A stretch of 35,514 nt of DNA from Deltaproteobacteria bacterium (GTDB lineage: Bacteria > Desulfobacterota > Dissulfuribacteria > Dissulfuribacterales > UBA3076), in the NCBI GenBank assembly GCA_019310825.1, contig JAFDDO010000002.1:1-35514 (forward strand). Reading direction: 5' to 3'. Position numbers and translations under genes: made by a program. This document shows, in pieces, positions 1-19,886 of this stretch. Each line of letters opens with the position of its first letter. Positions within the stretch are counted from its first letter, which is position 1. Under the pieces are notes generated by a model. That model saw only the letters and a program-made list of their open reading frames with translations. It was not told the DNA's origin and did no database searches.

Positions 1-642
1 GATCTTAAGGGCGAGCTTGCCGGACGGGGAGGTATTGGTCAGGAAGACCGCGCCTGCTCCATCAGAGAGCATCCAACGAAGAAAATCCGCATTAAAGGTC
101 ACCGGAGACGATTCTTCTAAGTCTTCAACCTTCTTCTGACTGACTGGTCCAAAAAACCGGCTACGTATGAAGGAGGATGCCAGTTCCGAACCACAAGCCA
201 CTGCATTTTTCGAAATCCCAGTAGCTACGTTCATATATGCGTATTTCAATGCTGTTATTCCGGAAAGGCAGATCCCTGAGGTACTGACCACTTCGCACGG
301 AATATTTCCCAATTCTCCATGCACCATTGATCCATGACCAGGCATCAATTGATCCGGTGTGGATGTTCCGCAACAAAGGCATTCAATATCATCCTGAGAA
401 AAACCTTCGTAAGGCTTCAGTTGGCGAATCGCTTCTGCCGTAAGCTGAACATTTGTGTGTGTTGTCTGGCCAGTGGCAGGATCAATGGCATAATATCTTT
501 GATGAATCCTATTTTTTCGGAGAATAATTTTCTTGATACGAGATGATACCTGGTCGACCATGCCCAAAATCTTTTCAATCTCATCGTTGTTGACAGGACT
601 GTTTGGCAAAAAAGCCGCAATATCAGTTATATAAACATCCAT
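1..642 (-). CDS. beta-ketoacyl-ACP synthase III-like condensing enzyme (FabH/DarB/type III PKS-like thiolase); C-terminus lies beyond the window edge
   Basis: My own translation of the minus strand from ATG 642-640. The frame stays open to position 1, which is why it is absent from the ORF track. Sequence: MDVYITDIAAFLPNSPVNNDEIEKILGMVDQVSSRIKKIILRKNRIHQRYYAIDPATGQTTHTNVQLTAEAIRQLKPYEGFSQDDIECLCCGTSTPDQLMPGHGSMVHGELGNIPCEVVSTSGICLSGITALKY... The N-terminal layout and the nucleophile-Cys context (GICLSG) are typical of KAS III-type enzymes. Confidence 0.7.
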   Translation of the reverse strand, partial: MDVYITDIAAFLPNSPVNNDEIEKILGMVDQVSSRIKKIILRKNRIHQRYYAIDPATGQTTHTNVQLTAEAIRQLKPYEGFSQDDIECLCCGTSTPDQLMPGHGSMVHGELGNIPCEVVSTSGICLSGITALKYAYMNVATGISKNAVACGSELASSFIRSRFFGPVSQKKVEDLEESSPVTFNADFLRWMLSDGAGAVFLTNTSPSGKLALKI

Positions 643-650
643 TGTAACTG

Positions 651-785
651 CTCAGGTATTTAGGCTGAAGGCTGAAGGCTGAAGTATATCAATCATCTCG
701 TAACGCTCGAATGCCCTAAGTTTTGTGTGATCGCGCATGTTTTGTTCCTAAAAACCTTCCACCTTTAGTCTATCCACCTGAGTAG
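651..785. repeat. 135-bp hairpin cassette (family 2, GGCTGAA-type arms) that fills the whole gap between the cobalamin radical SAM gene and the KAS III gene
   Basis: The left arm ctcaggtatttaggctgaaggctgaaggctgaag is the inverted complement of the right arm ccttccacctttagtctatccacctgag. The core ttttgtgtgatcgcgcatg recurs at 27040-27058 and 27181-27197. On the minus strand the core reads ATG CGC GAT CAC ACA AAA CTT AGG GCA TTC GAG = MRDHTKLRAFE. Confidence 0.8.
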
Positions 786-2156
786 TCATAATTTTGCCCC
801 GGCGTGACAGGCCTTTAAGAGGCTGGCATAATTTTGGTAAAAAACCTCCTCTTCCAATTGTGTAGGGGTAACTGCATTTGTAAGAGTATAATAATCAAGA
901 TCGTGAATAATGATTTGATCTTTTACTGATTCGTACAAATGAGTTCCGGGCAAAGGCGTCAGCACTGTTAGTATCGGCAAATCAATGGCGTTATCCTCGA
1001 TGTATCTTGCGAGCGTTTCAAATTGGGCCTCTTTATAATCCGGAGAAACGATAAAGTCACCTACGATAGTGATGCCGATATTGTGCAATATTCGGATAGC
1101 TTCCGAGTTGGTCGCGACGTTGTTGGCCTTTTTCATTTTCTGAAGGCCTTCATTGCTGATTTCTTCAAAACCAATAATCACTGACCGCAGTCCTGCTTTT
1201 TTCCACTGCAACAGCAGGTCGGAATGACGCACTACAGTGTCAGACCGGATGTCCGCCAGGAAATGTTTTTTTATCCCGGCTTCTTGAATACCTTCGCAAA
1301 GTCTGCTTGCGTGATCAAGATTGCCAAAGGTATTGGCATCGACCAGACGGATAACAGGAATGTCCTCAAGCAACCGGATGTCGCGCAAAATACTTTCGAT
1401 TTTGCGGGTAAGATAGCGCCCTCCAGCTTGGCCGGCAATGCAACAAAATGAACAGTTGTATGGGCAGCCGAAAGCCGTTGCTACAAAACCGACTCTGAGA
1501 TTGAGAGATGACAGTGTATAGCTCTCACGATATTGCCTTACAAGATCGTAACAAGGAGATTTTTCATCCACTAGGTCAAGGGAACAGTATTTTCGAGGAA
1601 TATATGAGAGACGACTTCCCGGATTGGTCTTGGCAACGCCGGCAATGGTCCTTGTCTCACCTCCCGACTCAATGGTTGACACAAGTTCTCTCAGGCTCGC
1701 CTTTCCCAAGCCTATGACAATATAGTCAATGTCTTGTTGATTAAAGAACTCAGGGTCATTGCTGGCATGCATACCCCCCACCACCACGGTTGCACCGCAG
1801 GCCTCCTTGATCTCCGATGCGAGCATGAGCATGGTGTTTGCTTCACAGGTCACTCCGGTAATTCCGACAATATCAGGCATGAACTCAGAGAGAACACTGT
1901 GCAGCGTGGAAGGTTCTGCCTTGAGATCGACAATACGGACCTCGTATATTTCGAGGTTACCTGCCAGGACCTCGAGAGCAAGGGGTTCCCCGCGGAATAT
2001 CTGCTTCAGGGAATCGATTCCGTATTGCTCTTCCGGAATACTGCGACCGCAATTAGGAGGGTTGACAAGGAGAATCTTCACGAGCTTGAGTTCTTTTTCA
2101 AGAAAACCAACAAATAGGATCTTCGGCCAGATAATCTCCGGTGATCTGATAGGCAT
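786..2156 (-). CDS. class B (cobalamin-binding domain) radical SAM enzyme
   Basis: 456-aa ORF. The N-terminal region (KILLVNPPN...EPLALEVLAGNL...VGGMHAS) resembles the B12-binding Rossmann domain of BchE/P-methylase-type enzymes. The radical SAM motif CPYNCSFC (CxxxCxxC) follows. The start is uncertain: ATG 2156 overlaps the upstream gene by 59 nt, and GTG 2081 (VKILLVNPP) is the alternative. Confidence 0.85.
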   Translation of the reverse strand: MPIRSPEIIWPKILFVGFLEKELKLVKILLVNPPNCGRSIPEEQYGIDSLKQIFRGEPLALEVLAGNLEIYEVRIVDLKAEPSTLHSVLSEFMPDIVGITGVTCEANTMLMLASEIKEACGATVVVGGMHASNDPEFFNQQDIDYIVIGLGKASLRELVSTIESGGETRTIAGVAKTNPGSRLSYIPRKYCSLDLVDEKSPCYDLVRQYRESYTLSSLNLRVGFVATAFGCPYNCSFCCIAGQAGGRYLTRKIESILRDIRLLEDIPVIRLVDANTFGNLDHASRLCEGIQEAGIKKHFLADIRSDTVVRHSDLLLQWKKAGLRSVIIGFEEISNEGLQKMKKANNVATNSEAIRILHNIGITIVGDFIVSPDYKEAQFETLARYIEDNAIDLPILTVLTPLPGTHLYESVKDQIIIHDLDYYTLTNAVTPTQLEEEVFYQNYASLLKACHAGAKL

Positions 2157-3132
2157 TGCCCCTGCAACCGTAGCATCTATACTTCAGCTCACATTTGCCA
2201 CAACGTCCCTTTATCAATTTCCGTATGTTTCTGAGCTCTTGGATAACCGGACTCTTGTTTAAGATATGTTCCAATGTATCTTCACGGACATTTCCTACAG
2301 ACAGGTTTACTCCACAGCATGGATGGATGTCTCCATTGGCGACCACAGTGCATGAGTATTCATGCCTGGCGCAGTGAGAGGCTGCCAATGGTGGATGGGG
2401 AATCCACTTGTTGCCAAACTCCTCGGCATCAATCTTTGCAAGGCTTTCAAACAGGGTCCTGGTTTTTTGGATCGATACCTCCAGGTCAGGATGCTCTGTT
2501 GCTCTGCCCTGCAAGGTCATGATCTCTACATAGGGAATAATTCCTTGTTTCCTGGCCCATCGCCACAATTGGGGAAGTTCTTCATAGTTCTGACGGCATA
2601 TGACGGTTTCAACTCCAAGTATGTGTTCCTCATCCGGGTAACCAACAGCCCTTAAGGCCTCAATGCCTCGCTCTATGGCCTGAAATGTCCCGGAATGTCC
2701 AGCCAGCAAGTCCTGGATCTCAGGACGTCTGCTGTTCATCTTTACAACCACGGCTACACCTCTGTCATAAAGGGCTCTGGCCTTGGACGGCGTTATCAGT
2801 GTCCCGTTAGTGAAGAGATCTGCTTTTACGCCTTTGGACAGTATGTAATCTATAACATCAATCAGATATGGATAGAGCAGAGGCTCGCCACCTCCCAGTA
2901 TGATTATCTTGCGTGCCCCAAGTGCTACGGCCTGGTCCACTACATCCAGTATTTCAGGCAGTGAAAGTTCGTTTTCCATAGGTAAGCCGGATGACGCATA
3001 ACAGTATATACAGCGCAGATTGCACGCCCTCGACAGCTCAAGTTCCAGGGACAGAAGTCCCTTTCGGGCACGGGCCTCGGCAATCTCTTCTTGAGAGAAC
3101 TCAAGTCCCCAATGTTTTTCAAAAAAGCTCAT
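2098..3132 (-). CDS. radical SAM enzyme with a C-terminal SPASM/twitch-type Cys-rich domain
   Basis: 344-aa ORF with CNLRCIYC (CxxxCxxC) near the N-terminus. The C-terminal auxiliary-cluster region is CARHEYSC...HPCC...GRCGKCELKYRCYGCRGNAY. Its ATG forms an ATGA overlap with the stop of the upstream ligase gene (3129-3132). Confidence 0.85.
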   Translation of the reverse strand: MSFFEKHWGLEFSQEEIAEARARKGLLSLELELSRACNLRCIYCYASSGLPMENELSLPEILDVVDQAVALGARKIIILGGGEPLLYPYLIDVIDYILSKGVKADLFTNGTLITPSKARALYDRGVAVVVKMNSRRPEIQDLLAGHSGTFQAIERGIEALRAVGYPDEEHILGVETVICRQNYEELPQLWRWARKQGIIPYVEIMTLQGRATEHPDLEVSIQKTRTLFESLAKIDAEEFGNKWIPHPPLAASHCARHEYSCTVVANGDIHPCCGVNLSVGNVREDTLEHILNKSPVIQELRNIRKLIKGRCGKCELKYRCYGCRGNAYQITGDYLAEDPICWFS

Positions 3133-4466
3133 GGTTTATCATTATCCCTAAGATCAAAAAAACGTTTCAGTTTTCGTCCGCCCGCCTTTTCCATAGTGTT
3201 TAGCACTTCTTGCCTGGGCCTTACTATTACCTCAGGACGGACTCTGAGGCGGGCCTGGAGGAATTCGGCCACCATGTCTGCATCAATATCTGATGCGTCT
3301 GTGCCTGCAACCACCCTTATTTCATCCGAAAGATCATACGAAGACTTCACCTCCACATAGGCCTCCTCCACATGTCTGAACTCTCTGAGCACATGGAAAA
3401 TCATCTCCGGATAGATGGTCGTCCCATGAAATTTAAGGCGTTGAGCAAGCCTTCCTTCTATAGGACCCAGACGAGTTGTACGCCAACCGCATTGGCATGG
3501 GTCTGTATGAAGCCGGGCCACATCTCCGGTACGAAAACGTATAAGAGGAAAGCCCTCCACGCCCAGCGGGGTAACCACAACTTCACCGGCTTTGCCTGTT
3601 GGCAGAACGTTTCCATCTCCATCCACGATCTCAACCAGGGCAAGTTCCGGATGGATATGCCCACCGCAAGAGGCATGACACTCGCAAAAGCAGGTCTCCA
3701 GCTCTGTTGCAGCGTAAGAAGAATAGACGCGCGCTCCCCATGCCTTTTCCAGATCTTTACCAAGAGGGGTTAAGGAGTTACCCTGCCCCCGGACCGGTTC
3801 ACCAATTGTGACAAGAGATTGCACTCCGGAGCAGTTGGGAGAATACCCCTGGGCCTCTCCCCACTGCGCCAATTTTAACAGGAACGTAGGCACGCCCACG
3901 ATTCCATCGGGCCTGAGCTGGCGTATCAGTTCCCACTGTCTGGCGGATTGGCCGGGTCCGCTTCGGATGGCAGTGGCACCAAGCTGGACAAGACCGGAAA
4001 AATAAGCCAGTCCGGCGATAAAACAACGGTCCAGAGTCACACAGATAAGATAGCGGTCTCCAGGCCGGACCCCCGTACCCCAGAAGGCCATGAGTTCGTT
4101 AAAGGCAAGCCGTGCAAGGTCGTTCCTGGTGTATGGAACCACTATGGGACTTCCTGTTGTCCCTGAAGTCAGTGACAGATCGGCTATTGATGCGGCCTCA
4201 ACCGCCTGAAAGGCTGTTGGGTCCATTTCTAATGCGCTGCGGCTGGTAAACGGCAAGGACCTGAGATCTTCCAAGACAATTATGTCTTTAAAGCTGCAAC
4301 CCAGAGCTTTCAGAAGTTGCTTGTAATAAGGGGCTTGACCGGCTTGCTGAACCTGGTTTCGCAAAAGCCCTGCCTGGAAATTTTCTATTTTTTCCGGGTC
4401 TGCGATACGCCACTCTAAAGCAGTCTTCAAAGAATAGCGGCTTTGCGTCAAACTACATTTAGTCAT
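3129..4466 (-). CDS. adenylate-forming enzyme of the PaaK / coenzyme F390 synthetase / LuxE acyl-protein synthetase type
   Basis: 445-aa ORF with the phosphate-binding loop LTSGTTGSPIVVPYT. Size and layout match phenylacetate-CoA-ligase-like (COG1541) enzymes. It overlaps the upstream gene by 8 nt. Confidence 0.8.
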   Translation of the reverse strand: MTKCSLTQSRYSLKTALEWRIADPEKIENFQAGLLRNQVQQAGQAPYYKQLLKALGCSFKDIIVLEDLRSLPFTSRSALEMDPTAFQAVEAASIADLSLTSGTTGSPIVVPYTRNDLARLAFNELMAFWGTGVRPGDRYLICVTLDRCFIAGLAYFSGLVQLGATAIRSGPGQSARQWELIRQLRPDGIVGVPTFLLKLAQWGEAQGYSPNCSGVQSLVTIGEPVRGQGNSLTPLGKDLEKAWGARVYSSYAATELETCFCECHASCGGHIHPELALVEIVDGDGNVLPTGKAGEVVVTPLGVEGFPLIRFRTGDVARLHTDPCQCGWRTTRLGPIEGRLAQRLKFHGTTIYPEMIFHVLREFRHVEEAYVEVKSSYDLSDEIRVVAGTDASDIDADMVAEFLQARLRVRPEVIVRPRQEVLNTMEKAGGRKLKRFFDLRDNDKP

Positions 4467-5271
4467 TGCCGCAAATAGCCGAAGATGTGATTAGATCGGA
4501 CATCATGCCCGACTTATAGCCAGTGGCGTTAAAAGGATTCACGCTTCGCTTGGCCAACTCGGTCGCTATGGACTCTCTGGCTTGATCCTTCAACGCGCGA
4601 ATACAGTCCGGATTATCCCCACACCCGGATGGTATTATCGGAGATAAGATGACCATCTTCACCCTGGATGGTGTGAGAAACCTGCTACCCGGTGGCATCA
4701 GGCGGTCAGTCCCCAGGATACATACCGGCACTATAGATGTTCCTGTATTACAAGCCAACCGGAAAGCCCCATTTTTAAAACGCGCAAGCCCGCCGTCTCT
4801 GGAGCGGTGTCCCTCAGGCCAGAATATGAGAGAACACCCCGATGCCAGCAGTTCTTTTCCCTTGCTCCAGACTATATCCCAGCCGTCATTTGAATTGATG
4901 TAACGCGCCAATCGCATTAACCACTTGTAGACCGGAATTCGAAAGGGCCACGATGTCACAAAGGCATTTTCAAACGGCAGCATACCAAAAAGGTAAGGGT
5001 CTACTGAGGAATTATGATTAGCCACAAATATTACCGGAGGTTTAATTCCGTTGGAAAAGTCTTCTACGGTGGCCGGGGCCATAAAGGGGACAACACGCAC
5101 CAATGCCCAACCATAAAGACGAATACTCTCCCTAATTACGCTGTCCATTGGCTGGTTTGCAAAAACGCTGTATATCAATAGTAAGGGGAGTATAAAAGAA
5201 AGACAGAAAACAGTGAAAACAGCAAAGACAGGCCAAATATACAGGTTGAGCAACAACTTTTTAAGGCCCAC
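4459..5271 (-). CDS. lysophospholipid / 1-acyl-sn-glycerol-3-phosphate acyltransferase family protein (PlsC-like), membrane anchored
   Basis: 270-aa ORF with an N-terminal TM segment, the HX4D motif (NHNSSVD) and a PEG(H/T)RS-type motif (WPEGHRSRDG). The GTG start at 5271 lies 6 nt after an AAGGAG. Confidence 0.8.
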   Translation of the reverse strand: MGLKKLLLNLYIWPVFAVFTVFCLSFILPLLLIYSVFANQPMDSVIRESIRLYGWALVRVVPFMAPATVEDFSNGIKPPVIFVANHNSSVDPYLFGMLPFENAFVTSWPFRIPVYKWLMRLARYINSNDGWDIVWSKGKELLASGCSLIFWPEGHRSRDGGLARFKNGAFRLACNTGTSIVPVCILGTDRLMPPGSRFLTPSRVKMVILSPIIPSGCGDNPDCIRALKDQARESIATELAKRSVNPFNATGYKSGMMSDLITSSAICGND

Positions 5272-5274
5272 TTA

Positions 5275-5541
5275 CTACTCCTTAGCAGCTTGCTGATTAC
5301 TAAGATGACTAACAAGCTCAAAAAGATCGCCCAGAGTCCTTACAGCCCGCACTGCCTCTTCATCGGTCATCTTCATCCCAAATGCCTTTTCCAGGGCCAC
5401 TACCATGTCTACCGCATCAAGGCTGTCCAGCCCAAGATCCTCATACAGGGTGGCGTCCGGCTGAAGCAACTCGGGTTCGAGTTCGAATTCCTCTGCCATA
5501 ATCTGCGTTACCCGGCGGCGGACCTGTTCGTCTGATATCAT
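5275..5541 (-). CDS. acyl carrier protein
   Basis: Has the LGLDSLD phosphopantetheine-attachment motif. I prefer ATG 5541-5539, which forms an ATGA overlap with the upstream KAS stop and is preceded by GGAGGTG. The ORF track extends the ORF to GTG 5550. Confidence 0.9.
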   Translation of the reverse strand: MISDEQVRRRVTQIMAEEFELEPELLQPDATLYEDLGLDSLDAVDMVVALEKAFGMKMTDEEAVRAVRTLGDLFELVSHLSNQQAAKE

Positions 5542-6788
5542 GCTGTCCACCTCCGCAGCACCATAGCGGCGTTAACCCCACCCAGTGCAAAGTTGTTCTT
5601 TAATACTATGTTCATTGAAAGCTTGTCCACTGAATGTGCCAGATTGATACCTAAACAAGCCGGATCGGGCCTTTCCAGATTAAGGGTCGGCACAACCTCC
5701 TGCCGGTCCAACATCTCAAGGAGCAATATTGTCTCAAGTGCCCCGGCGGCACCAAGGGTGTGCCCCAAATGCCCTTTGTATGAGCTGACCGGCACATCTT
5801 TACCAAATATGGTATGGATTGCAACGGCCTCTGCTATATCTCCAAGCAAAGTCCCCGTGGCATGTGCATTTACATAATCAATGTCATCTCCATTCAATCC
5901 GGCCTCGGCCAAGGCATTACGCATTGTCCTGACCATGGAGTCTTCATGCGGATTGGCAATGCTCTTGCTGTCATTTACATGACCAAACCCCAGGATCTCA
6001 CAATAAATCTTTGCCTTACGCCTCAAAGCAGAGTCCAGGCTTTCCAGGACCACGACACCTCCACCTTCACCACAAACGACCCCATCCCTGTTCAGGTCAA
6101 ATGGCCTGGGAGTGGTCAAAGGGAGATCATGACTTCGTGAGGCCGCTTTTATCACGTCGAACACCATTGTGACCGTAGGATGGACCTCGTCAGCTCCGCC
6201 ACACAGCATCGCCTCTTGCCGGCCGGAGCGAATTAACATATAACCAAGACCCATGGCCTGTGCTGATGAGGTGCACGCACTTGTGGGCGCCCACTGTTCG
6301 CCGGTTATTCCGAGGGCAAGGCAGACATTGGCCGCGCAGCAATGCCCCATAATCTTAAAAAACATCCCGGATCGGACATGTTCAACACTCTCTTCAGGTA
6401 AAAACTGCCTGTACAATGCCTCGTATATCGTGGGACTCCCGGTAGTGGACCCGATTGCCACCCCTACCCTTCCTGATGTCAGAAAGTCCGGCTCAAGTCT
6501 GGAATCCGAGACTGCCTCCTTGGCGGCCAGGGTAGCATAAATGGCCATGGGGCCCATAGTTCGTCGAATGGTGCGAGGCAATAAGGGCTTGGCATCAAAG
6601 GGTGGAACCGGCCCTGCCATGTGGCATTGAAGTCCTTGAATATTCTCCCAATCCGGCATCAGCTGTATGCCTGATCGCCCATTCCACACTCCATCCAATA
6701 GATCAGCCGTCCCTAACCCAAATGGGGATACCGCCCCACGCCCGGTGATAACTACCCGCTTCAGCGACACTGTCTCACCTCGTCCCAC
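5538..6788 (-). CDS. beta-ketoacyl-ACP synthase I/II-like (FabF/FabB family), Cys-His-His triad intact
   Basis: 416-aa ORF with PTSACTSS (nucleophile Cys), NAHATGT and KGHLGHTLGAAG. The start is either GTG 6788 or GTG 6770; the latter is preceded by GAGGTGA. Either start overlaps the upstream gene. Confidence 0.9.
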   Translation of the reverse strand: MGRGETVSLKRVVITGRGAVSPFGLGTADLLDGVWNGRSGIQLMPDWENIQGLQCHMAGPVPPFDAKPLLPRTIRRTMGPMAIYATLAAKEAVSDSRLEPDFLTSGRVGVAIGSTTGSPTIYEALYRQFLPEESVEHVRSGMFFKIMGHCCAANVCLALGITGEQWAPTSACTSSAQAMGLGYMLIRSGRQEAMLCGGADEVHPTVTMVFDVIKAASRSHDLPLTTPRPFDLNRDGVVCGEGGGVVVLESLDSALRRKAKIYCEILGFGHVNDSKSIANPHEDSMVRTMRNALAEAGLNGDDIDYVNAHATGTLLGDIAEAVAIHTIFGKDVPVSSYKGHLGHTLGAAGALETILLLEMLDRQEVVPTLNLERPDPACLGINLAHSVDKLSMNIVLKNNFALGGVNAAMVLRRWTA

Positions 6789-8257
6789 AGGGGTTCCAGA
6801 CCTTCAATTTCACCTACGGTCACCATACCGGCAAGTGAGGCCCCCATTATTCCGGCCATTAACGTCCCCTGTCCGCTAAGCCATAAACCCGGCAAACGGG
6901 TCCTGACCCCGGGACTGAATTGGTTCATGCTGTGCTGAACTCCATATGTTGCTCCCATTGGTGAACCTAGTCTGTCTCTGAATGTAAGAGGGGTCCCTAT
7001 TGCCAGGGGTTCTATGCGGCTGCAGGCATCACCCCAGAGCCTGCCTGCCTGCTCTATCATCTTATCGGCAGATTCTGCTTTCCACTTTCTATATGCCGAG
7101 CTGCGTTTTCCTTGCACACCCTGATCAAAACGGGCTACTTCGTCCCAAGCTGACATCCGTATCAACAGGACTCCCCGTGATGCACCTGTGGAATCCGAAT
7201 CCCTTCGTCCAGGGGCGTTAATCATGATCGATTTTTCCGGATGCCTCAAGTCTAAATCCATTATGTCCAGACCAGTACGGATGTTGTAATAATTGACCCA
7301 TGTCAGATCTCCCAGTGTATCAGGATCATCTATGGCCCCGAATACTATAAACATAGAGTTTGTATTTATCAGATTCCGCATACGATTATAGAAGGCCTTG
7401 CGGAATATTCCATCCGGGACCATATCCAAAAGGCTGGTGGGATGACCCGTGTAGATCACATGAGAGGCGCATATCTCTCCCTTGGAAGTCTTGACTCCTG
7501 CCACCTGATTTTCCTTTACTATGATCGATTCAACCTCTTGCCCGGTCAGAATATCCACGCCTGCTTCTGCCAGGGTTGCTAAAAAGGCATCCACTATGGC
7601 CTGTCCACCACCATCTATGGCATAGACCCCGGAATATAGCGGGTGGGCAACTGAGGCATGGATAGTAAGATTAACCTCCCTGGGTGGAACTCCATAGAGA
7701 AAAACCGGTGTTGACAGCACGGCATGAAGATCCGTATCCTGAATAAGGGATGTCAGAAGTTGAGCCAGGCTCATGCCTTTCGGAGAAAACAGGTCATGTA
7801 AATATGGAGTAAGGGGGAGATCCGGATTAAAGAATGGGATGGTGTTGGAGATTTCCCTGATTTTATTGAGATAGGTGGAAATCCCTTGTTTTTCGTCTGG
7901 AAAGACCCGTTGCAGTTCGTCCTCCAAACGATCATAGGAAAAAAAGGCCCGGACTACTCTGCCGGAATCCCTTATTCTGAGATTCTCATTACCTTCCGGG
8001 GGAAAGGGAAGTATGACAAGACGAGGCCAGACACCTATATATTCCCACAGGGCCCGCAGTATTTCTCCCTTTCCCATACCACCTGAGTAGTGAAAACCAA
8101 TGTCAAAGGGAATTCCTCTGCGTGTAAAACGCTTTAACGCCCCACCGGGCCTCTTGTTTCGTTCCAGTATAATTACTCGTCTGCCTTTTTTGGCAAGCAG
8201 GGCCGCGGCTGTCAGACCGCTTATCCCGCTCCCTATGACAACGACTGCAGCCTTCAT
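6761..8257 (-). CDS. NAD(P)/FAD-dependent oxidoreductase of the phytoene desaturase (CrtI/CrtD, COG1233) type
   Basis: Has the dinucleotide-binding fold MKAAVVVIGSGISGLTAAALLAKKGRRVIILE. Its length of about 498 aa and its C-terminal GQGTLMAGIMGA-type segment are typical of CrtI-like enzymes. I chose ATG 8257 (ATGA overlap with the upstream KAS stop) rather than the track start at 8314. Confidence 0.8.
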   Translation of the reverse strand: MKAAVVVIGSGISGLTAAALLAKKGRRVIILERNKRPGGALKRFTRRGIPFDIGFHYSGGMGKGEILRALWEYIGVWPRLVILPFPPEGNENLRIRDSGRVVRAFFSYDRLEDELQRVFPDEKQGISTYLNKIREISNTIPFFNPDLPLTPYLHDLFSPKGMSLAQLLTSLIQDTDLHAVLSTPVFLYGVPPREVNLTIHASVAHPLYSGVYAIDGGGQAIVDAFLATLAEAGVDILTGQEVESIIVKENQVAGVKTSKGEICASHVIYTGHPTSLLDMVPDGIFRKAFYNRMRNLINTNSMFIVFGAIDDPDTLGDLTWVNYYNIRTGLDIMDLDLRHPEKSIMINAPGRRDSDSTGASRGVLLIRMSAWDEVARFDQGVQGKRSSAYRKWKAESADKMIEQAGRLWGDACSRIEPLAIGTPLTFRDRLGSPMGATYGVQHSMNQFSPGVRTRLPGLWLSGQGTLMAGIMGASLAGMVTVGEIEGLEPLWDEVRQCR

Positions 8258-9501
8258 CAAGCAATCCTTATAACCAGGCAGGCATTGGTCCCACCAAAAC
8301 CGGATGCATTGCAAAGCATAAAACGTGGCCTGAATGTAACCGTCTTTTTGGGGAGATATAAGACCTCTGCAGCGGGATCCGGCACTTCAAGGTTGGGATT
8401 TCCTGCCACAAAACCGCCACATGCCATCAGCAGACCATAGACCACTTGTGATGCGCCTGCCATCCAGAATTCGTGACCTGTCAGCCCCTTCACTGCGGAC
8501 ACAATTGGGCCTTTTTTTGCCCCATTCAAATCAAAAACATTTCGCAGGGCAATTGCCTCTGCCCTGTCACCAGAAAGGGTTGATGTGGCATGTGATAAAA
8601 CCAGATCAATATCATCAGGGGAAAGGGCGGCATCCATCAAAGCACAGCGCATTGCCCGTTCCAACCCCTCCCCGCTCGGCACCGCTATGTGGTGACCGTC
8701 TGATGTGTTGGAATAACCCATAACCTCGCCCAATATCTGAGCACCTCGTGCCTCGGCCAATTCGAATGCCTCTAAAACGATAGCAGCGGCACCACCACTG
8801 GGGACTAGCCCGTCCCGGTCTTGATCAAACGGGCGAGAAGCTGCCCCGGGATCGTTTTCCCTGCGCGAAAAGGCCCCTAAGGCATCAAAGCTGCACATGG
8901 ATTCCCAGGAGATTTCCTGCACCCCACCGCAAATGATTCGATCTTGCCTGCCAAAGGCTATGGTTTCAGCCCCATGGCCTACTGCCATGGCACCGCTCGC
9001 GCAAGCCCCGCTCACAGTCCAAGACACTCCACGTATTCCCAAAATGTTGTTCAGGTTAAGGGTAACAGTACTGGTTAGCAGCCGGAATATGTGTCCACTG
9101 CCTATGGCCCTTGTCTCCCCGGCAGATCGAAGCGTATCCACCTGCTCAACTGCCGTAACAGCAGAGGAATCGTTGCCGAACACCACTCCTGTTTTCTCAT
9201 CACCAGTCAGACTATCAGGATGAATACCGGCCTGCTCCAGGGCCTGAGACACCGCAGACCAGGCCCAGAGGCCATATTCCGGCAATGTCTTGCGATGTTT
9301 CCTGTCCAAAACACTCTTCGGATCAAAGCCATCGACAACACCGCTAAGCGCGCTCTGAAAACCTAAGGCCTTACGTTCAGGGAGAAAACGTACGCCGCTT
9401 CTTCCTTCCCGGAGGGAGGCCTGCACTTCATCTCTATTGAGGCCCAAACAGGAAATAATACCAATGCCCGTAATGGCTACTCGTCTATTTTTATGTTTCA
9501 T
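8257..9501 (-). CDS. beta-ketoacyl-ACP synthase I/II-like (FabF/FabB family), first gene of the operon
   Basis: 414-aa ORF with VSGACASG (nucleophile Cys), SHATST and GLTGHEF (the two His residues). The N-terminus RVAITGIGIISCLG is typical of KAS I/II. Confidence 0.9.
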   Translation of the reverse strand: MKHKNRRVAITGIGIISCLGLNRDEVQASLREGRSGVRFLPERKALGFQSALSGVVDGFDPKSVLDRKHRKTLPEYGLWAWSAVSQALEQAGIHPDSLTGDEKTGVVFGNDSSAVTAVEQVDTLRSAGETRAIGSGHIFRLLTSTVTLNLNNILGIRGVSWTVSGACASGAMAVGHGAETIAFGRQDRIICGGVQEISWESMCSFDALGAFSRRENDPGAASRPFDQDRDGLVPSGGAAAIVLEAFELAEARGAQILGEVMGYSNTSDGHHIAVPSGEGLERAMRCALMDAALSPDDIDLVLSHATSTLSGDRAEAIALRNVFDLNGAKKGPIVSAVKGLTGHEFWMAGASQVVYGLLMACGGFVAGNPNLEVPDPAAEVLYLPKKTVTFRPRFMLCNASGFGGTNACLVIRIA

Positions 9502-9628
9502 TTAAGTTCTTTTGAGTTTGATAGCTCAATTCTATTCAGGCCAAAACAGGAAATAATACCAATGCCCGTAATGGCTACTCGTCTATTTTTATGTTTCACT
9601 TAAGATTTTTTGAGTTTGATGGCTCAAC
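9433..9628. repeat. tandem direct duplication (2 x 98 bp, about 93% identical) of the KAS start codon region
   Basis: Unit 1 (9433-9530) and unit 2 (9531-9628) align with no gaps and 7 mismatches, and 55 nt are identical in a row. Unit 1 contains the real ATG (9501-9499) and codons 1-23. In unit 2 the ATG is changed to GTG (9599-9597). Confidence 0.9.
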
Positions 9629-9805
9629 AGGGATTTATTTTTCCAAAGCAGCAGCTCACGCGCACAACTTAACAGTTGCCGGACCTGCTCACAAGTAACA
9701 GCAATTATGCTGTTGATCTGAACCGCTTCGCGGAATGCCCCACTCATCCATTCTACGTCGAAAAAATAATTTTCCTTTTCACTTCGTCCAAACTCCCTTT
9801 TTCCA

Positions 9806-9835
9806 TTGCAATTATCCTCAGGCCGACGATATAAT
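9806..9835 (+). promoter_or_regulatory. putative sigma70-type promoter for the DUF1538 operon
   Basis: TTGCAA (9806-9811), an 18-nt spacer, then TATAAT (9830-9835), lying 10-50 nt upstream of the candidate start codons. This is a pattern match only. Confidence 0.35.
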
Positions 9836-9846
9836 CCCCGTTAAGA

Positions 9847-10635
9847 TTGGGATGGTCGGCGGAAACTATGACTCGGAAAAAAATGCTCGCTGTAAACACC
9901 CGGGTGCTTTTTGTGGCCCTGAAAAAACTGCAAGGTGCCTTTACCGACCTGTTGCCCATAATCCTAGTTATTGCCTTTTTTCAGCTTGTTGTACTCAGGC
10001 AGCCGTTGCCGCAGTTGGGCGAGGTGGTTTTGGGCGCCCTTCTGGTTGTTACAGGGTTAAGCCTGTTTATTCAAGGACTTGAGATGGGCCTGTTTCCCGT
10101 CGGCGAGGCAATGGCGCATGCCCTGGCTCGCAAGGGAAGCGTCTTCTGGCTGTTGTCTTTTGCCTTTGCCCTCGGTTTTTCAACCACTGTGGCGGAACCC
10201 GCTCTTATTGCCGTGGCCAGAGAAGCAGCCGAAATAGCTGGTCAGGCCAAGCTAATTGATCCTGGCGAAGAATCACTTCGGGGATATGCCCTGGGCCTGC
10301 GGTTGACCGTGGCCTTTTCCGTAGGGTTGGCTATCCTGATAGGGGTGCTGCGTATTATCTTAGGCTGGCCTGTCCATTACCTGATTATCAGCGGCTACGC
10401 TATTGTGATGCTGATGACCATGATCGCGCCGGAAGAGATTATCGGCCTGGCCTATGACGCTGGCGGTGTCACCACATCTACTGTAACCGTGCCTCTGGTC
10501 GCGGCCCTGGGAGTCGGGCTGGCCTCAAGCATTAAGGGCCGCAGTCCGTTGTTGGACGGCTTTGGGCTTATCGCCTTTGCCTCCCTGCTGCCCATTATAT
10601 TTGTCATGGGTTACGGGCTGATAGTTTTCAGTTGA
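9847..10635 (+). CDS. DUF1538 family integral membrane protein (putative permease subunit)
   Basis: Polytopic membrane ORF, paralogous to the next gene. Shared motifs are FQL(V/L)VLRQP, TT(V/I)AEPALIAVA and AYD(A/S)[17 protein letters not shown](V/L)GL. The start is uncertain (ATG 9847, 9868 or 9883). Confidence 0.75.
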
Positions 10636-10653
10636 TACACAGGAGCGCTACAA

Positions 10654-11451
10654 ATGGCTTTTTTTATTGATTTTGCTAAAATACTGTTTGCCACCTGCCG
10701 GGATGTGCTGCCGATCATTGTCCTGATAACCTGCTTCCAATTGCTGGTATTGCGTCAGCCTATTCCGCACCTGCGACGTCTCATTATTGGCGGAGTATAT
10801 GTGGTTATAGGGCTGGCCCTGTTTCTTGCCGGGCTTGAAAAGGCACTGTTTCCCCTTGGTAAAATAATGGCCGCCCAGTTGTCGGACCCAACTTTCATTT
10901 GCGGCTCGGATGTGGCTGTTGCCCCGGCGGACTGGAAAGCCTACGGCTGGATTTATCTTTTTGCTGCCATGGTCGGCTTTGCCACCACCATTGCCGAACC
11001 AGCGCTCATCGCAGTCGCTTATAAAGCCAATGAGGTTTCCGCCGGCACCATCAGCCAGTGGGGATTGCGTATAACAGTGGCACTTGGCGTTGCGGCCGGC
11101 ATCAGCCTGGGTACCTACCGAATTGTCAGCGGCACACCACTCTACATGTACATACTGGCAGGATACCTGGTTGTTGTCGTGCAAACCATATTCGCACCTA
11201 GAAATATCATCCCCCTGGCTTACGACTCCGGCGGGGTTACCACATCGACAGTGACCGTGCCCCTGGTGGCTGCGCTCGGCCTGGGATTGTCCTCTACGGT
11301 TCCCGGCTGCAATCCCGCCCTGGATGGCTTCGGCCTTATCGCTTTTGCGAGTTTGTTTCCGATTATTACCGTACTGGGTTATGCTCAATATATGCACTGG
11401 TCCGTTGACCGCAGCAAAAAATCTCCCAAGGAGGGTAACCATGCGATTTAA
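10654..11451 (+). CDS. DUF1538 family integral membrane protein (second paralogue)
   Basis: 265-aa ORF with the same motif set as 9847-10635. Confidence 0.75.
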   Translation: MAFFIDFAKILFATCRDVLPIIVLITCFQLLVLRQPIPHLRRLIIGGVYVVIGLALFLAGLEKALFPLGKIMAAQLSDPTFICGSDVAVAPADWKAYGWIYLFAAMVGFATTIAEPALIAVAYKANEVSAGTISQWGLRITVALGVAAGISLGTYRIVSGTPLYMYILAGYLVVVVQTIFAPRNIIPLAYDSGGVTTSTVTVPLVAALGLGLSSTVPGCNPALDGFGLIAFASLFPIITVLGYAQYMHWSVDRSKKSPKEGNHAI

Positions 11452-11788
11452 GGTTATTTTAGCATCCGTTAAGACCGAAAAAACCGATCAGGTTGTTGAC
11501 GCGGCCAAGCAGGCCGGCACTACCGGTGCGACAATTATTCCGGCGCGGGGCACTGGCATCAATGAGGCGAAAACATTTTTCGGTCTCACCCTGGAAGCCC
11601 AGACCGACATAATCATGTTTCTGATTGAAGAACATGTTGTTCAGAATATTTTAGATGCCATAAACGCCGCAGGGGAGTTTCACAAGCCAGGGACCGGTAT
11701 TGCATTTGTTTTGCCGGTTGAGCAAGTGATCGGCCTGGAAAGCCAGATGGAGCGATTCAAGAAAGAGGTGCGGGATCAGTATTTTTAA
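11441..11788 (+). CDS. P-II (GlnB-like) family signal-transduction protein
   Basis: MRFKVILASVKTEKTDQVVDAAKQAGTTGATIIPARGTGI... About 115 aa with a beta-alpha-beta layout like P-II proteins. ATG 11441 is preceded by AAGGAGGG. The longer track ORF (from 11324) overlaps the permease gene and I did not use it. Confidence 0.65.
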   Translation: MRFKVILASVKTEKTDQVVDAAKQAGTTGATIIPARGTGINEAKTFFGLTLEAQTDIIMFLIEEHVVQNILDAINAAGEFHKPGTGIAFVLPVEQVIGLESQMERFKKEVRDQYF

Positions 11789-11846
11789 AGGGTATGTGGT
11801 GAACCAATACCGGCCTGATACATTATCTTAAAAAAGGAGGATGATT

Positions 11847-12251
11847 ATGGTCTCGGCAAAAACGCCAATTGTGCGGGCAAAAGACATTATGCATAAGGGG
11901 GTGGTGTACATCGACGGCATGGCCACCGCAAAAGAAGCAGCTGCAACAATGCGGGACGCGCACGTCTCCGCTCTACTGGTAAAAAAACGGGATCCTGATG
12001 ATGCATGGGGCATCATAGCCGTCCAGGATTTGATCCGGGGGGTATTAATCCCAGGGCGGTTACCCAAAGAAGTAAATGTCTATGAAATCATGACAAAACC
12101 GGTCATTACTGTGCCGGCTGACATGGATATCCGATATGTGGCCCGCCTTCTTCACCATGCCGGCATACGGAGAGCTCCGGTTGAAGATCAAGGGGAACTT
12201 GTCGGCATGGTTTCTATGTCATCTCTGATTCTGGATAACGATTTGTTTTAG
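11847..12251 (+). CDS. CBS-domain pair protein
   Basis: Two CBS repeats (VRAKDIM...VSALLV and VYEIMTKPVITV...IRRAPVED.GELVGMVS). ATG 11847 lies 6 nt after AAGGAGG. Confidence 0.8.
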   Translation: MVSAKTPIVRAKDIMHKGVVYIDGMATAKEAAATMRDAHVSALLVKKRDPDDAWGIIAVQDLIRGVLIPGRLPKEVNVYEIMTKPVITVPADMDIRYVARLLHHAGIRRAPVEDQGELVGMVSMSSLILDNDLF

Positions 12252-15427: not shown

Positions 15428-16882
15428 ATGGCCATGTCGAGAGGTATTTATATGAGTTCTGTGCATCCTGAAGATCTTTTCACAGAGGCAACGGATAGCC
15501 CAAGTGCTACTAGACCCAAAATCCTGATAGTTGATGACGACCAAAGCCTCAGGGAATTTTTGGAGATACTCCTTGCCAAGGAAGGTTGCGATGTATGTTC
15601 CGCATCCAGTGGGGAAAAGGCCCTTCGTCTCATGGATAAGGAAAATGTATCTCTGGTCATAAGTGACGTGAAGATGCCCGGCATAGATGGGATGACTTTA
15701 CTGAAAGAAATCAAGACTAAGTACGCAGATGTCCCTGTAATACTGATTACTGCCTTTGCCTCTTTGGATACCGCAATGGCGGCAATGAAAGAGGGGGCCT
15801 GGGACTATCTTACCAAGCCCTTTCGGATAGAAGAAATCAGGGAAGTTGTGGGAAAAGCCCTTGAAACAAGACCGAAGGCCCGGTCCTTGATCAGAGATAC
15901 TGCTGGCAAGATTTATAAGCTTGACAATATGTTGACCAAAAGCCCGGTCATGCTCAAAATATTCCAATTAATACCCAGGATAGCATCCAGTCCTTCCAGT
16001 GTGCTCATATCCGGTGAAAGTGGCACAGGGAAAGAGCTTGCTGCACGAGCCATTCATAACCTTGGAGTCCGCAAGGACAGGCCCTTTGTAGTTATTAACT
16101 GCGGAGGCATCCCGGAGAACCTCCTTGAAAACGAGCTGTTTGGCCACAAAAAAGGGGCCTTTACCGGTGCTAATCGTGAAAAACAAGGTCTCTTTGCCAT
16201 GGCCAGTCAAGGCACTATCTTTCTTGATGAAATCGGAGAACTGCCTATGACCCTCCAAGTCAAACTGTTGAGAGTCGTGCAACAGAAGTCCTTTACATCT
16301 CTTGGTGACACCAAAGAAATGAAGGTAGATGTGAGGATATTGGCAGCCACTAACCGTGACCTGGAAAAGGAAGTAATAACCGGGCGATTCAGGGAAGACC
16401 TGTATTACAGACTGAACGTAATCCAAATTCGTATGCCACCATTAAGAGAACGTCCTGAAGACATTCCTCTCCTGGTCCAGTACTTCCTGGACAAATATTC
16501 CAAAGAACAAGATAAGGCCGTACAGGGCATATCCAGCTTTGCCATGGATGCATTACAAAAATACTCGTTCCCGGGAAACGTGAGAGAACTGGAAAATATC
16601 ATCGAAAGGAGTGTGGCCCTAGCCACCTCAAATCTTCTGCTTCCTGAAAGCCTGTCTCTGGCTGAGTTCAAGCAGCAAAAAACCTTCGAATCCAGCCCCT
16701 TTTCTTACGAACCGTACCTTGGGCCTGAAGGTTTAGACCTCGAGCAGTTCCTAGGCCATATAGAAAAAACTCTTTTAAAAAAGGCGCTCGATAAAACAAA
16801 CGGGGTAAAGACAGAAGCTGCCCGTATCCTCGGCCTTAACTTCAGGTCCTTTAGATATCGTCTATCAAAGTATGCCCTCTAA
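15428..16882 (+). CDS. sigma54-dependent response regulator (NtrC family: receiver + AAA+ + Fis-type HTH)
   Basis: Receiver domain (ILIVDDD...ISDVKMPGIDG), Walker A GESGTGKE, the sigma54-contact loop GAFTGA, and a C-terminal HTH (AARILGLNFRSFRYRL). ATG 15452 is a possible alternative start. Confidence 0.9.
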   Translation: MAMSRGIYMSSVHPEDLFTEATDSPSATRPKILIVDDDQSLREFLEILLAKEGCDVCSASSGEKALRLMDKENVSLVISDVKMPGIDGMTLLKEIKTKYADVPVILITAFASLDTAMAAMKEGAWDYLTKPFRIEEIREVVGKALETRPKARSLIRDTAGKIYKLDNMLTKSPVMLKIFQLIPRIASSPSSVLISGESGTGKELAARAIHNLGVRKDRPFVVINCGGIPENLLENELFGHKKGAFTGANREKQGLFAMASQGTIFLDEIGELPMTLQVKLLRVVQQKSFTSLGDTKEMKVDVRILAATNRDLEKEVITGRFREDLYYRLNVIQIRMPPLRERPEDIPLLVQYFLDKYSKEQDKAVQGISSFAMDALQKYSFPGNVRELENIIERSVALATSNLLLPESLSLAEFKQQKTFESSPFSYEPYLGPEGLDLEQFLGHIEKTLLKKALDKTNGVKTEAARILGLNFRSFRYRLSKYAL

Positions 16883-18530: not shown

Positions 18531-19886
18531 CTATTTCCTCCAGACCCACTCGGTCTTGAGATCTATCTTCTTCTCCTCACTGAAGAACAAGACCTTATCA
18601 TCATTTTTGAATTCACCAAAGGGCACATACCACAGCTTTACTTCCACCAAAAGCTCATCTTCGGTAAGTTCCCTGGTCTTTTTACCGTCTTTCTCTACAT
18701 CAGCATATGGAAACGGTATCTCAAAAACTTCCTTAACCTTCTTCAGAGGCGGTATACAGGTATCTCTGAGCAAACCGCACTTCTCATAGGGTCCTCTTCC
18801 CATCTCTGACCCTCTGCCGAAACGTCCGGGGTAAGGCATGTAGATAACTTGATCATTATAAATTTTTTCCCCACCTATTGTTTTCGCGGTCACATCCAGG
18901 ACCAGCCTGTTAGGGGTGGGTCACCCGTCAGGTATAGCATGCCCAGACTTATTGTAGATCTCTACGTTAATTACACCAAGAGGAATAACGCCTTCTACAC
19001 TGTCTTTGCGCCAGAAGTGGGACATGGCTTCGACTTCGATATCAAAGGCCATCTTGATCATGTCCTCGTCCCGGTAGGCTTGCATGTCGTGGCCCAGACC
19101 GGATTTGGCCATATGGCATTCCTGGCAGGTGTCGTGCCCGCCTTCAGGAATATACGCAAAGAGGTAGCTGCCGTACAATGTGGCACACTGGGAGGGCTCA
19201 TCTAACTCGAAGTTGGGCCCCTCACCATGGCACTGACCACAGAATATGGATTCATTCAAGGCCGGGGCCTTACCCATTGCGGTAAAGTCAGGGTGATCAT
19301 GCTCACCTTCCTGAAATGCATAAATTGTATCCGGCTGAGGATAGCCATCCTTCCATTTGTGGATAATGGCCTTCTTGTTATGGCAGACTAAGCAACCGAT
19401 ATTCAGGCTTGCTATCTTCTCCTCAAGTTCATCTGCTATATCTTCATAATCTTCATCTTCTACTGATTTTTGGCATGCACTTAGCCAGTCTCTGACGGTC
19501 TTGACGATTTCCCTAGCCACATCATCCGTTGCCTCATCCAGTTGAGGCAAATGGCATTTGGCGCACATCATGAGGTGACGAACTTCGACATCGTCATCCG
19601 TCTTGACACCGGAATAAGGGAACAACTTAAGACCCATATCTATGCTAGTTAGTATTGTCGGAGCTGTCCGTGGAGTACCCAGGATGGAAACGGCGTGAAG
19701 GGAATTACTCCACTGTTCGTATTTCTCTTCGTGACACTCCTCACAGGAACTCGAATCATAGCGAGCAGCTAGTTCTGCGATGGTCTTGGCCTTGGGGACC
19801 TCCGCAGGCTTTGTGCCGCAAAGTCCATAAGAGGACCAGACACAGCTCACCAAAAACAAAAATGTTACAATCCTCAAAACTCCCAT
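18531..19886 (-). CDS. secreted pentahaem c-type cytochrome, interrupted by an in-frame TGA at 18921-18923 (selenocysteine, readthrough or pseudogene)
   Basis: Five CxxCH motifs (CEECH, CAKCH, CLVCH, CGQCH, CQECH), a signal peptide with a possible lipobox (LVSC) and a strong RBS (AGGAGGGAGG). Track ORFs 18921-19886 and 18531-18893 are in the same frame and are separated only by TGA plus 9 sense codons. Confidence 0.75.

Follow-up and report, generated by a model that had tools for sequence, protein, structure and literature searches.

What do two adjacent radical S-adenosylmethionine (SAM) enzymes act upon when their genes lie in an operon for acyl carrier protein (ACP)-dependent synthesis? 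The question is raised by a 35,514-nt stretch of DNA from a Deltaproteobacteria bacterium (UBA3076; assembly GCA_019310825.1, contig JAFDDO010000002.1, positions 1 to 35,514), referred to throughout as the window, in which the gene for a SPASM-domain radical SAM enzyme (3132-2098) is followed by one for a B12-binding, class B radical SAM enzyme (2081-786; hereafter the B12 enzyme). We find that the two genes meet at the junction of two gene modules, and that the constant companion of the B12 enzyme in related loci is a ketosynthase of the DarB family. From this gene content, we propose with moderate confidence that both genes encode non-peptide tailoring enzymes of an anaerobic dialkylresorcinol/aryl-polyene (flexirubin-type) ACP-based lipid pathway, in which the B12 enzyme would act on the DarB product, either as an oxygen-independent substitute for the aromatase DarA or as a C-methylase.

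A DarB-family ketosynthase gene follows the B12 enzyme gene in related loci

The two radical SAM genes belong to a single tight minus-strand operon of nine genes (9501-1), in the order KS1-PD-KS2-ACP-AT-PCL-SPASM-B12-rSAM-DarB. An earlier annotation of this DNA, the original prediction, had followed the operon as far as position 786 and missed its ninth gene (642-1). The features are as follows.

8257..9501, minus strand: KS1, FabB/FabF-like beta-ketoacyl-ACP synthase, 414 aa, operon gene 1 (PF00109 + PF02801)
6761..8257, minus strand: PD, phytoene-desaturase/CrtD-like FAD amine-oxidase-family oxidoreductase, 498 aa by the gene call of the source contig (PF01593, PF13450, PF01266)
5538..6770, minus strand: KS2, second beta-ketoacyl-ACP synthase, 410 aa (PF00109 + PF02801)
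5275..5541, minus strand: dedicated ACP, 88 aa (PF00550; NF003757, 81.2 bits, above the cut-off of 65)
4459..5271, minus strand: AT, PlsC/LPLAT-type acyltransferase, 270 aa (PF01553, 66.1 bits)
3129..4466, minus strand: PCL, FlxY/PaaK-like adenylate-forming ligase, 445 aa (PF00501)
2098..3132, minus strand: radical SAM/SPASM enzyme, 344 aa (PF04055, PF13186)
786..2081, minus strand: B12-binding (class B) radical SAM enzyme, 431 aa, start GTG 2081 (PF02310, PF04055)
643..785, minus strand: spacer between the B12 enzyme and DarB genes, 143 nt, unusually long, containing a 28-aa open reading frame (ORF; 738-652)
1..642, minus strand: StlD/DarB-family ketosynthase gene, 5' part (213 codons), cut by the window edge (NF005293)

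The original prediction had placed the two radical SAM genes side by side and had described them as translationally coupled to an adenylating enzyme, an ACP and ketosynthases, a description with which domain searches agree. On the minus strand, the SPASM enzyme scores above the cut-offs of PF04055 (88.4 bits against 29.5) and PF13186 (36.3 against 21.5), as does the B12 enzyme for PF02310 (52.1 against 32.1) and PF04055 (48.7 against 29.5), and the ketosynthases, PD-like flavoprotein, ACP, PlsC-type acyltransferase and AMP-ligase are all recovered by their domains. The ligase stop codon overlaps the SPASM start by 4 nt (ATGA), the genes upstream overlap or lie 1-3 nt apart, and all operon neighbors overlap or lie 1-16 nt apart save for the 143-nt spacer 5' of the DarB gene. 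This gene spacing suggests that the operon is co-transcribed; the runs found to hold the locus are DNA metagenomes, with no RNA-seq run among them. Promoter and terminator scans did not perform better than chance, and an Rfam search of the window returned no match. Identical JGI metagenome contigs show that the DarB gene is the operon's last and that a convergent histidine kinase gene comes next. The operon is devoid of genes for a ketoreductase (KR), a dehydratase (DH), TAL or XanB2.

In the source contig, the ninth gene encodes a full-length protein of 382 aa (L001:12491-13639). This protein scores 564.6 bits on the StlD/DarB subfamily model NF005293, above its cut-off of 450, and only 79-93 bits on FabH models; Cys-His-Asn motifs can be read from its translation, and with the DarB encoded in a genuine darA-darB-acpP operon it shares 51% identity. 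By the NF005293 match, the window thus encodes a head-to-head ketosynthase of the kind that defines dar clusters. DarB and StlD do not elongate chains, but catalyze the head-to-head joining of a 3-oxoacyl with a 2-enoyl thioester to give a carboxy-dialkylcyclohexanedione, which the aromatase DarA (StlC, BrtC) turns into a dialkylresorcinol (PMC6836626).

A scan of one genome per species turned up relatives of the B12 enzyme in at least 546 genomes, and the counts given here for 80 loci refer to the best 80 of these. The scan was run with a 10-sequence alignment, a 15-sequence version that included 34-39% identical relatives having proved too diverse. The 80 loci come from Desulfobulbales, Desulfuromonadales/Geobacterales, Syntrophales, Syntrophorhabdia, Holophagaceae and a few other groups; the carriers are anaerobes (Desulfobacterota, Holophagaceae), and include cold-seep and marine-sediment metagenomes. 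A DarB gene directly follows the B12 enzyme gene in all 80, at a median gap of 10.5 nt. Since DarB is the invariant partner, a dialkyl-cyclohexanedione/resorcinol intermediate is the likely substrate of the B12 enzyme. The original prediction had suggested acyl chains, acyl-ACP or lipid tails as substrates; its non-peptide character is retained here, but a plain acyl chain or membrane-lipid tail is the less likely substrate of the B12 enzyme.

Clustering of neighboring ORFs across the same 80 loci recovered an ACP (37 loci), an ABC-2 permease (35), an ABC ATPase (31), DarH (35) and DarG (26). The DarH proteins, which are BtrH-related acyltransferases, reach 464.9 bits on NF053550 (cut-off 300), and the DarG proteins 153.5 bits on NF053536 (cut-off 70). 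In Azoarcus, genes for a BtrH-like protein, an ABC ATPase, an ABC permease and an ACP likewise stand beside darA-darB (PMC3949708).

No DarA was detected near these DarB genes. With a single query, the 318-aa DarA that a Burkholderia pseudomallei plasmid encodes in a darA-darB-acpP operon (recorded as 'dialkylrecorsinol condensing enzyme'), neither tblastn nor phmmer matched anything in the window or in 85 loci, each covered to about 10 kb on either side. Genuine DarA itself matches no model in either NCBIfam or Pfam, and a search for DarA-annotated neighbors on Pseudoalteromonas and Nostoc plasmids was uninformative. In the related loci, the slot that darA takes in the darA-darB-acpP operon, immediately upstream of darB, is occupied by the B12 radical SAM gene, whose product is unrelated to the DarA of oxygen-tolerant bacteria.

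The radical SAM genes meet at the junction of two modules

SPASM orthologues are present in only 11 of the 80 B12-enzyme loci, and the SPASM gene ends a separate module of seven genes. In every full-context locus examined, the order KS-PD-KS-ACP-AT-PCL-SPASM is preserved, with the SPASM gene last and directly after the ligase gene. This module is kept in the clade of the window and in ten other loci (L010-L015, L088, L092, L093 and L094), including Desulfurivibrio alkaliphilus AHT2 and three long contigs. In these three long contigs no B12-rSAM/DarB pair lies within 9 kb, and in D. alkaliphilus the pair lies upstream of the module and is divergently transcribed. The two radical SAM genes of the window thus adjoin where two modules meet and do not form a conserved pair; the window operon is a fusion of module A (KS-PD-KS-ACP-AT-PCL-SPASM) with module B (B12-rSAM-DarB).

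Inspection of the module A proteins shows that KS1 is best matched in NCBIfam by a FabB-like model (348.7 bits against a cut-off of 630), PD by CrtD (113 against 550), KS2 by NF006587 (396 against 470) and the ligase by the FlxY model NF053551 (403.3 against 520), with PaaK at 176.8 bits; throughout the operon, NCBIfam equivalog cut-offs are missed except by the ACP and, for its subfamily, by DarB. The translations of both ketosynthases retain an intact Cys-His-His triad (motifs GACASG, DGHH and TGHE in KS1; ACTSS, HATGT and GHTLGAAG in KS2). A role for either as a dead chain-length factor (CLF), as in the anammox amxFabF pair, was considered and rejected on this ground.

Several module loci continue with further genes, encoding a PagL-like protein, a protein with a B12-binding domain only, a TIGR04072 protein, GT2+DUF2062, an LpxL-like acyltransferase, an ACP, a KS, a CLF-like KS, a ketoreductase and an ApeP-like dehydratase, which by their predicted functions are aryl-polyene-type content. 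A true TIGR04072 member ('lipid biosynthesis B12-binding/radical SAM', 645 bits) is encoded by a gene of its own in some related loci. Directly upstream of the TIGR04072-type gene in such loci stands the B12-binding-only gene (L088:12410-13681, L094:11219-12478), whose product of about 420 aa has a B12-binding domain and no recorded radical SAM Pfam match; that of L094 shows weak NCBIfam radical SAM similarity only. This protein could be a degenerate paralogue, or else a partner subunit.

The spacer between the B12 enzyme and DarB genes varies at this junction. Compared with the median over the 80 loci, the 143 nt of the window is long, the six largest estimates ranging from 90 to 286 nt; in the close relatives L006, L007 and L008 it is about 230-290 nt, and in L008 some 535 nt also separate the SPASM gene from that of the B12 enzyme. 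These long spacers suggest small insertions at the module junction in the clade of the window. The 28-aa ORF within the spacer (738-652) has no match in syntenic loci and none in NCBIfam, and no terminator-like site was found in the 143 nt. The idea that this ORF is the remnant of a four-helix-bundle (23S IVS) protein found no support in the NCBIfam scan and was dropped.

The SPASM enzyme is closest to enzymes with small-molecule substrates

The SPASM enzyme has the CX3CX2C motif at C37/C41/C44, and eight further cysteines (C254, C261, C272, C311, C314, C320, C323 and C341) are also invariant among 28 orthologues. Together with its domain matches, this motif and the Cys-rich C-terminal motif typical of two auxiliary [4Fe-4S] clusters place it in the radical SAM/SPASM class. 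Only some 26 residues precede the radical SAM core and its CX3CX2C motif, which leaves no room for a peptide-recognition domain.

AhbD, NirJ and AhbC, as well as BlsE, have small-molecule substrates, from which they remove side chains or a carboxyl group by oxidative decarboxylation. In NCBIfam, the SPASM enzyme is matched best by members of this group of compact proteins, which like it have no peptide-binding domain (166.6 to 108 bits; AhbD 166.6 with a cut-off of 500, NirJ2 151, NirJ 123 with a cut-off of 515). Models of peptide maturases score lower (MftC 110 against 265, StsB 98 against 625, PqqE 94 against 381), and AhbD/NirJ and maturase models alike are far below their cut-offs. The SPASM enzyme differs from the AhbD/NirJ/AhbC group in missing cut-offs of 500-650 by a wide margin, in having no heme-pathway genes in its operon or nearby, and in its conserved partners, namely a ligase, an ACP and ketosynthases; it does not belong to the AhbD/NirJ heme-pathway families. 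Decarboxylation of the AhbD/NirJ type would nonetheless fit a carboxylated intermediate in the pathway that we propose for the window.

The AlphaFold2 (AF2) model of the SPASM enzyme (pLDDT 74) matches the folds of SkfB, SuiB, PqqE, anSME, MoaA and BlsE at TM-scores of about 0.6 and 16-22% identity, and BlsE is found among the matching solved structures by sequence as well as by fold. These matches are generic to SPASM/twitch proteins, and as model-based comparisons confirm class membership but not chemistry. In the AF2 models of both enzymes, cofactors are absent and the cluster-binding loops are of low confidence.

The B12 enzyme belongs to a tight and isolated family

As called mechanically, and also by JGI, the ORF of the B12 enzyme starts at ATG 2156, encodes 456 aa and overlaps the SPASM gene by 59 nt. 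The NCBI record holds the exact 431-aa product, from GTG 2081, 16 nt past the SPASM stop, and nearly all of the 120 homologues among the matches listed are 431 aa long and cover 100% of the 431-aa query. Because the homologue lengths and the NCBI product agree on 431 aa, we take GTG 2081 to be the true start. The 431-aa homologues are 56-69% identical and come from Desulfobulbales, Desulfuromonadales, Geobacterales, Syntrophales, Syntrophorhabdia and Holophagaceae. Among 1.84 billion representative proteins, the family comprises a few clusters at 400-520 bits, after which scores fall to 270 bits at 39% identity; the next-nearest relatives are likewise unassigned, HpnR/BchE-like proteins.

The B12 enzyme has the architecture of class B, an N-terminal B12-binding domain followed by a radical SAM domain with an invariant CX3CX2C motif (C206/C210/C213). 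HpnR (hopanoid C-3 methylase) and BchE (anaerobic Mg-protoporphyrin monomethylester cyclase) share this arrangement of a B12-binding Rossmann domain and a radical SAM barrel, and each has a hydrophobic substrate that is not a peptide. In NCBIfam, the B12 enzyme comes closest to HpnR (172.8 bits against a cut-off of 650) and BchE (129.6 against 481); on TIGR04072 it scores 51.6 against 360. Its scores are thus far below the cut-offs and hopanoid or bacteriochlorophyll genes are absent from its context, which sets it apart from HpnR and BchE; it is a member of none of these three families.

By sequence, the nearest solved structure is that of MgmA/QCMT (9ccb, E = 1e-11), the glutamine methylase of MCR (PMC12931638). 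The AF2 model (pLDDT 79) matches the folds of TsrM, AprD4, OxsB, MgmA, CysS and TokK at TM-scores of 0.6-0.7, the highest being that to AprD4, at 0.72. AprD4 has a B12-binding domain but no cobalamin cofactor and is not a methylase. Since it is the top fold match of a predicted model, use of cobalamin by the B12 enzyme should not be assumed; the structural matches, by sequence and by modeled fold, speak to class membership only and not to chemistry.

Elsewhere in the window, on the minus strand at 30484-32367, a gene encodes a RACo-type reductive activator of corrinoid proteins (Fer2, RACo linker, middle and C-terminal domains); by its domain content, it is consistent with a corrinoid-using anaerobe.

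A proposed pathway and the evidence that weighs against it

From the gene identities, the two modules, the B12-rSAM/DarB adjacency, the lack of DarA and of a precursor peptide, and the anaerobic hosts, that of the window being a strict anaerobe of the Thermodesulfobacteriota from marine sediment or cold seeps, we infer the following chemical steps. In module A, the FlxY/PaaK-like ligase would activate a carboxylic acid starter, which the two intact ketosynthases would extend on the dedicated ACP and the PD flavoprotein would desaturate. The SPASM enzyme would carry out a radical oxidation of a small-molecule or ACP-bound intermediate, most likely an oxidative decarboxylation of the AhbD/NirJ kind or a dehydrogenation, and the PlsC-type acyltransferase would hand the acyl product to an acceptor. 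In module B, the head-to-head condensation by DarB of a 3-oxoacyl with a 2-enoyl thioester would give a carboxy-dialkylcyclohexanedione, and the B12 enzyme would then work on that ring: abstraction of a hydrogen atom beside the carboxylate, loss of CO2 and one electron, and tautomerization would yield the resorcinol.

Our tentative proposal, to which gene context lends something short of an even chance, is that the B12 enzyme takes over the role of the aromatase DarA, to which it is not homologous, in an oxygen-independent way. This role is favored by the one-for-one positional replacement together with the precedent of BchE, which one account describes as an anaerobic oxidative cyclase, the O2-independent counterpart of an oxygenase (PMC13598231). 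The specific chemistry, a radical oxidative decarboxylation and aromatization of the DarB-made carboxy-cyclohexanedione in place of DarA, is slightly more doubtful.

Several points weigh against the proposed pathway and roles. Most characterized class B radical SAM enzymes are methyltransferases, so that a priori one would expect the B12 enzyme to methylate. The chemistry suggested for all members of the pathway is read from their genes. NCBIfam equivalog cut-offs are missed save by the ACP and the DarB subfamily (FlxY 403 against 520; the narrower DarB 'exception' model 468 against 550), and in the latter case the exact score of the window DarB is 468.5 bits; the DarB of the genuine darA-darB-acpP operon also misses this model, at 501.4. 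DarG, DarH and ABC transporter genes, often present in related loci, are not beside the operon in the window's own contig, and the search for DarA used a single query over roughly 10 kb on each side of each locus. With no ketoreductase or dehydratase in the operon, housekeeping fatty acid synthesis may supply the precursors. DarA looks flavodoxin-type by its sequence and may have no need of O2, which weakens the logic of an anaerobic replacement. Finally, a Prevotella plasmid encodes a DarB homologue with neither DarA nor a radical SAM neighbor, and DarB homologues without DarA and without a radical SAM neighbor are also described in cyanobacteria (PMC6836626).

Alternative substrates and reactions

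The strongest alternative is that the B12 enzyme is a cobalamin-dependent C-methyltransferase acting on the ring or side chain of the DarB product, or on an acyl-ACP substrate of DarB, with aromatization, if any, occurring spontaneously or by the PD-like flavoprotein or the SPASM enzyme. The best NCBIfam match, HpnR at 172.8 bits, is a hopanoid C-3 methylase, HpnR-like proteins are also among the next-nearest relatives of the family, and methylases are its nearest solved relatives by sequence and fold (MgmA/QCMT 9ccb, TsrM, TokK, CysS; PMC12931638); DarB homologues without an aromatase exist, moreover, and may stop at cyclohexanediones (PMC6836626). The HpnR score is, however, far beneath its cut-off of 650, the match of highest TM-score, AprD4, is not a methylase, and an enzyme that merely decorates would not be expected beside DarB in all 80 loci, in the slot of darA and with DarA always absent. 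We consider this alternative unlikely, though one of real weight.

A second alternative, in line with the original prediction and with the reading of Rattray et al., is that ordinary fatty acyl chains or the tails of membrane lipids are the substrates of both enzymes and that DarB is a FabH-like initiating ketosynthase; the chemistry would be an anaerobic desaturation to polyunsaturated chains, or a cyclization or coupling of the ladderane, tetraether or membrane-spanning type. The gene content does match clusters of K. stuttgartiensis, D. psychrophila, Geobacter and Pelobacter (PMC2649909), and some related loci encode a TIGR04072 protein, lipid-A-type acyltransferases and PagL-like proteins. 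This alternative is nevertheless improbable. DarB scores 564.6 bits on the StlD/DarB model against 79-93 on FabH models; DarG and DarH, which are specific to dialkylresorcinol/flexirubin clusters, accompany the pair in related loci; the B12 enzyme of the window is not of the TIGR04072 type (51.6 bits against 360); and Deltaproteobacteria with such clusters make no ladderanes (PMC2649909).

A precursor peptide would point instead to peptide maturation, and the original prediction had found none. This finding holds: 11 small ORFs, mostly intergenic, are present in window positions 1-9860, none of them rich in Cys or Gly, and tblastn of the small ORFs against 10 syntenic loci (45-70% protein identity) identified no conserved ORF. 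The sole matches were those of two ORFs that owe their existence to a 98-bp duplication at the start of KS1. A scan of two small ORFs, of 28 aa and 52 aa, against NCBIfam gave no match. The original prediction had named tight clustering with known maturases, or a conserved small ORF in homologous loci, as grounds for abandoning its proposal; neither was observed, an outcome that favors a non-peptide substrate. With no conserved small ORF, an N-terminus too short for a peptide-recognition domain, and maturase models ranking low and below cut-off, the SPASM enzyme does not qualify as a SPASM maturase of ribosomally synthesized and post-translationally modified peptides (RiPPs) or proteins. With ACP-dependent lipid/polyketide partners in every related locus as well, it is very unlikely that either enzyme is a peptide or protein maturase. 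That one or both mature a RiPP or a protein encoded elsewhere in the genome, their place in a lipid operon being incidental, draws on the fact that SPASM enzymes are best known as such maturases and on the top fold matches of the SPASM enzyme (SkfB, SuiB, PqqE, anSME), but those matches are class-level (TM about 0.6, 16-22% identity), there is no N-terminal recognition domain, and the seven-gene module and the DarB pairing are conserved over orders and phyla, such that we give this account hardly any credence.

Relation to known gene clusters

Compared with darABC, StlCD and BrtCD systems, the window shares a DarB/StlD-family ketosynthase and a dedicated ACP, and its related loci share DarG, DarH and an ABC exporter. 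It differs in the lack of DarA, in the class B radical SAM gene that fills the darA slot, in its strictly anaerobic hosts and in the fused module A. With flexirubin, arcuflavin and aryl-polyene (APE) clusters, the window has in common a FlxY-like ligase, a PlsC-type acyltransferase, type II KS and an ACP, while ketoreductase, ApeP-like dehydratase, CLF-like KS, GT2+DUF2062, LpxL-like acyltransferase and PagL-like protein are shared by related loci only. Its FlxY-like ligase is below cut-off, a starter-forming enzyme (TAL or XanB2), KR and DH are lacking, and both KS are intact; by these features the window operon falls short of a flexirubin/aryl-polyene cluster. To our knowledge, a PD-like flavoprotein and radical SAM enzymes are not part of described flexirubin/APE clusters.

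Clusters of 'ladderane type' have the same gene inventory, the same host lineage and likewise no peptide. In 2009, KS paralogues were reported to co-cluster with phytoene-dehydrogenase-like, phenylacetyl-CoA-ligase-like and radical SAM genes in anammox bacteria, Desulfotalea, Geobacter and Pelobacter, the deltaproteobacterial product being left open (Rattray et al. 2009, PMC2649909). The gene content of the window fits that account (KS paralogues, PD-like protein, ACP, ligase, radical SAM), as compared by description only. Such clusters in Desulfobacterota and other phyla are called 'ladderane' by antiSMASH, with their function acknowledged to be unknown (PMC9902471). The window differs in that its B12 enzyme is not of the TIGR04072 'ladderane' type, which occurs as an extra paralogue in some related loci. 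These two papers on ladderane clusters (PMC2649909, PMC9902471) mention neither DarB nor resorcinols, and a full-text literature search returned no paper linking dialkylresorcinols or DarB to radical SAM or cobalamin enzymes.

Tetraether synthase (Tes), the ring synthases GrsA/B and the membrane-spanning lipid synthase resemble the enzymes of the window in that radical SAM chemistry is applied to lipid carbon skeletons with no peptide involved, and Tes carries a SPASM domain (PMC13459092). They act, however, on finished membrane-lipid tails and outside ACP/KS operons, whereas here DarB is the partner. As precedents, they are analogies only, neither sequence nor gene context having given a sign of kinship; Tes, GrsA and the membrane-spanning lipid synthase are not named among the NCBIfam matches listed, and no comparison with their reference sequences was made. 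The new element at this locus is the B12 radical SAM enzyme in DarA's place, the dar/flexirubin-type and 'ladderane-like' kinds of cluster being themselves known.

Other features of the window

At the head of the operon, a tandem duplication of 98 bp (9428-9623, copies 92-93% identical) repeats the ribosome-binding region of KS1 and its first ~24 codons, just upstream of the true start. The upstream copy has GTG for ATG and stops after 33 codons, leaving a decoy mini-ORF in the operon leader. Divergent from the operon, at 9847-12251 on the plus strand, lie genes for two DUF1538 membrane proteins, a P-II-like protein and a CBS-domain protein, followed by those for an aspartate/ornithine carbamoyltransferase and a dihydroorotase-like amidohydrolase. 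A sigma-54 two-component pair (15428-18479) adjoins a minus-strand gene (18921-19886) for a 321-aa multiheme cytochrome c (cytochrome c7, NapC/NirT-like, with paired CXXCH motifs). Two plus-strand ORFs, 20285-22909 (874 aa) and 28831-30492 (553 aa), contain no Pfam domain at E <= 1e-5.

Implications

If the B12 enzyme does replace DarA, it would be the first radical SAM enzyme of resorcinol/cyclohexanedione biosynthesis, with a class B chemistry that is new and does not methylate. Tied to DarB across hundreds of anaerobic species, such an enzyme would offer an experimentally tractable case. The proposal would provide a testable function for part of the 'ladderane-like' clusters, an anammox puzzle since 2006-2009 that is routinely mislabeled in the mining of anoxic genomes (PMC9902471). 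Many clusters called 'ladderane' in non-anammox anaerobes, relatives of the B12 enzyme being present in at least 546 species genomes, would then make resorcinolic or aryl-polyene-type lipids, and sorting out the radical SAM enzymes of resorcinol modules would help to narrow the candidates for true ladderane chemistry. Tetrapyrrole biosynthesis offers pairs of aerobic and anaerobic enzymes in AcsF/BchE and HemF/HemN; if DarA is indeed replaced, this would be a further such pair, now in polyketide-type aromatization. The resorcinolic lipids of sulfate- and metal-reducing sediment bacteria could, in turn, be unrecognized biomarkers or signaling molecules.

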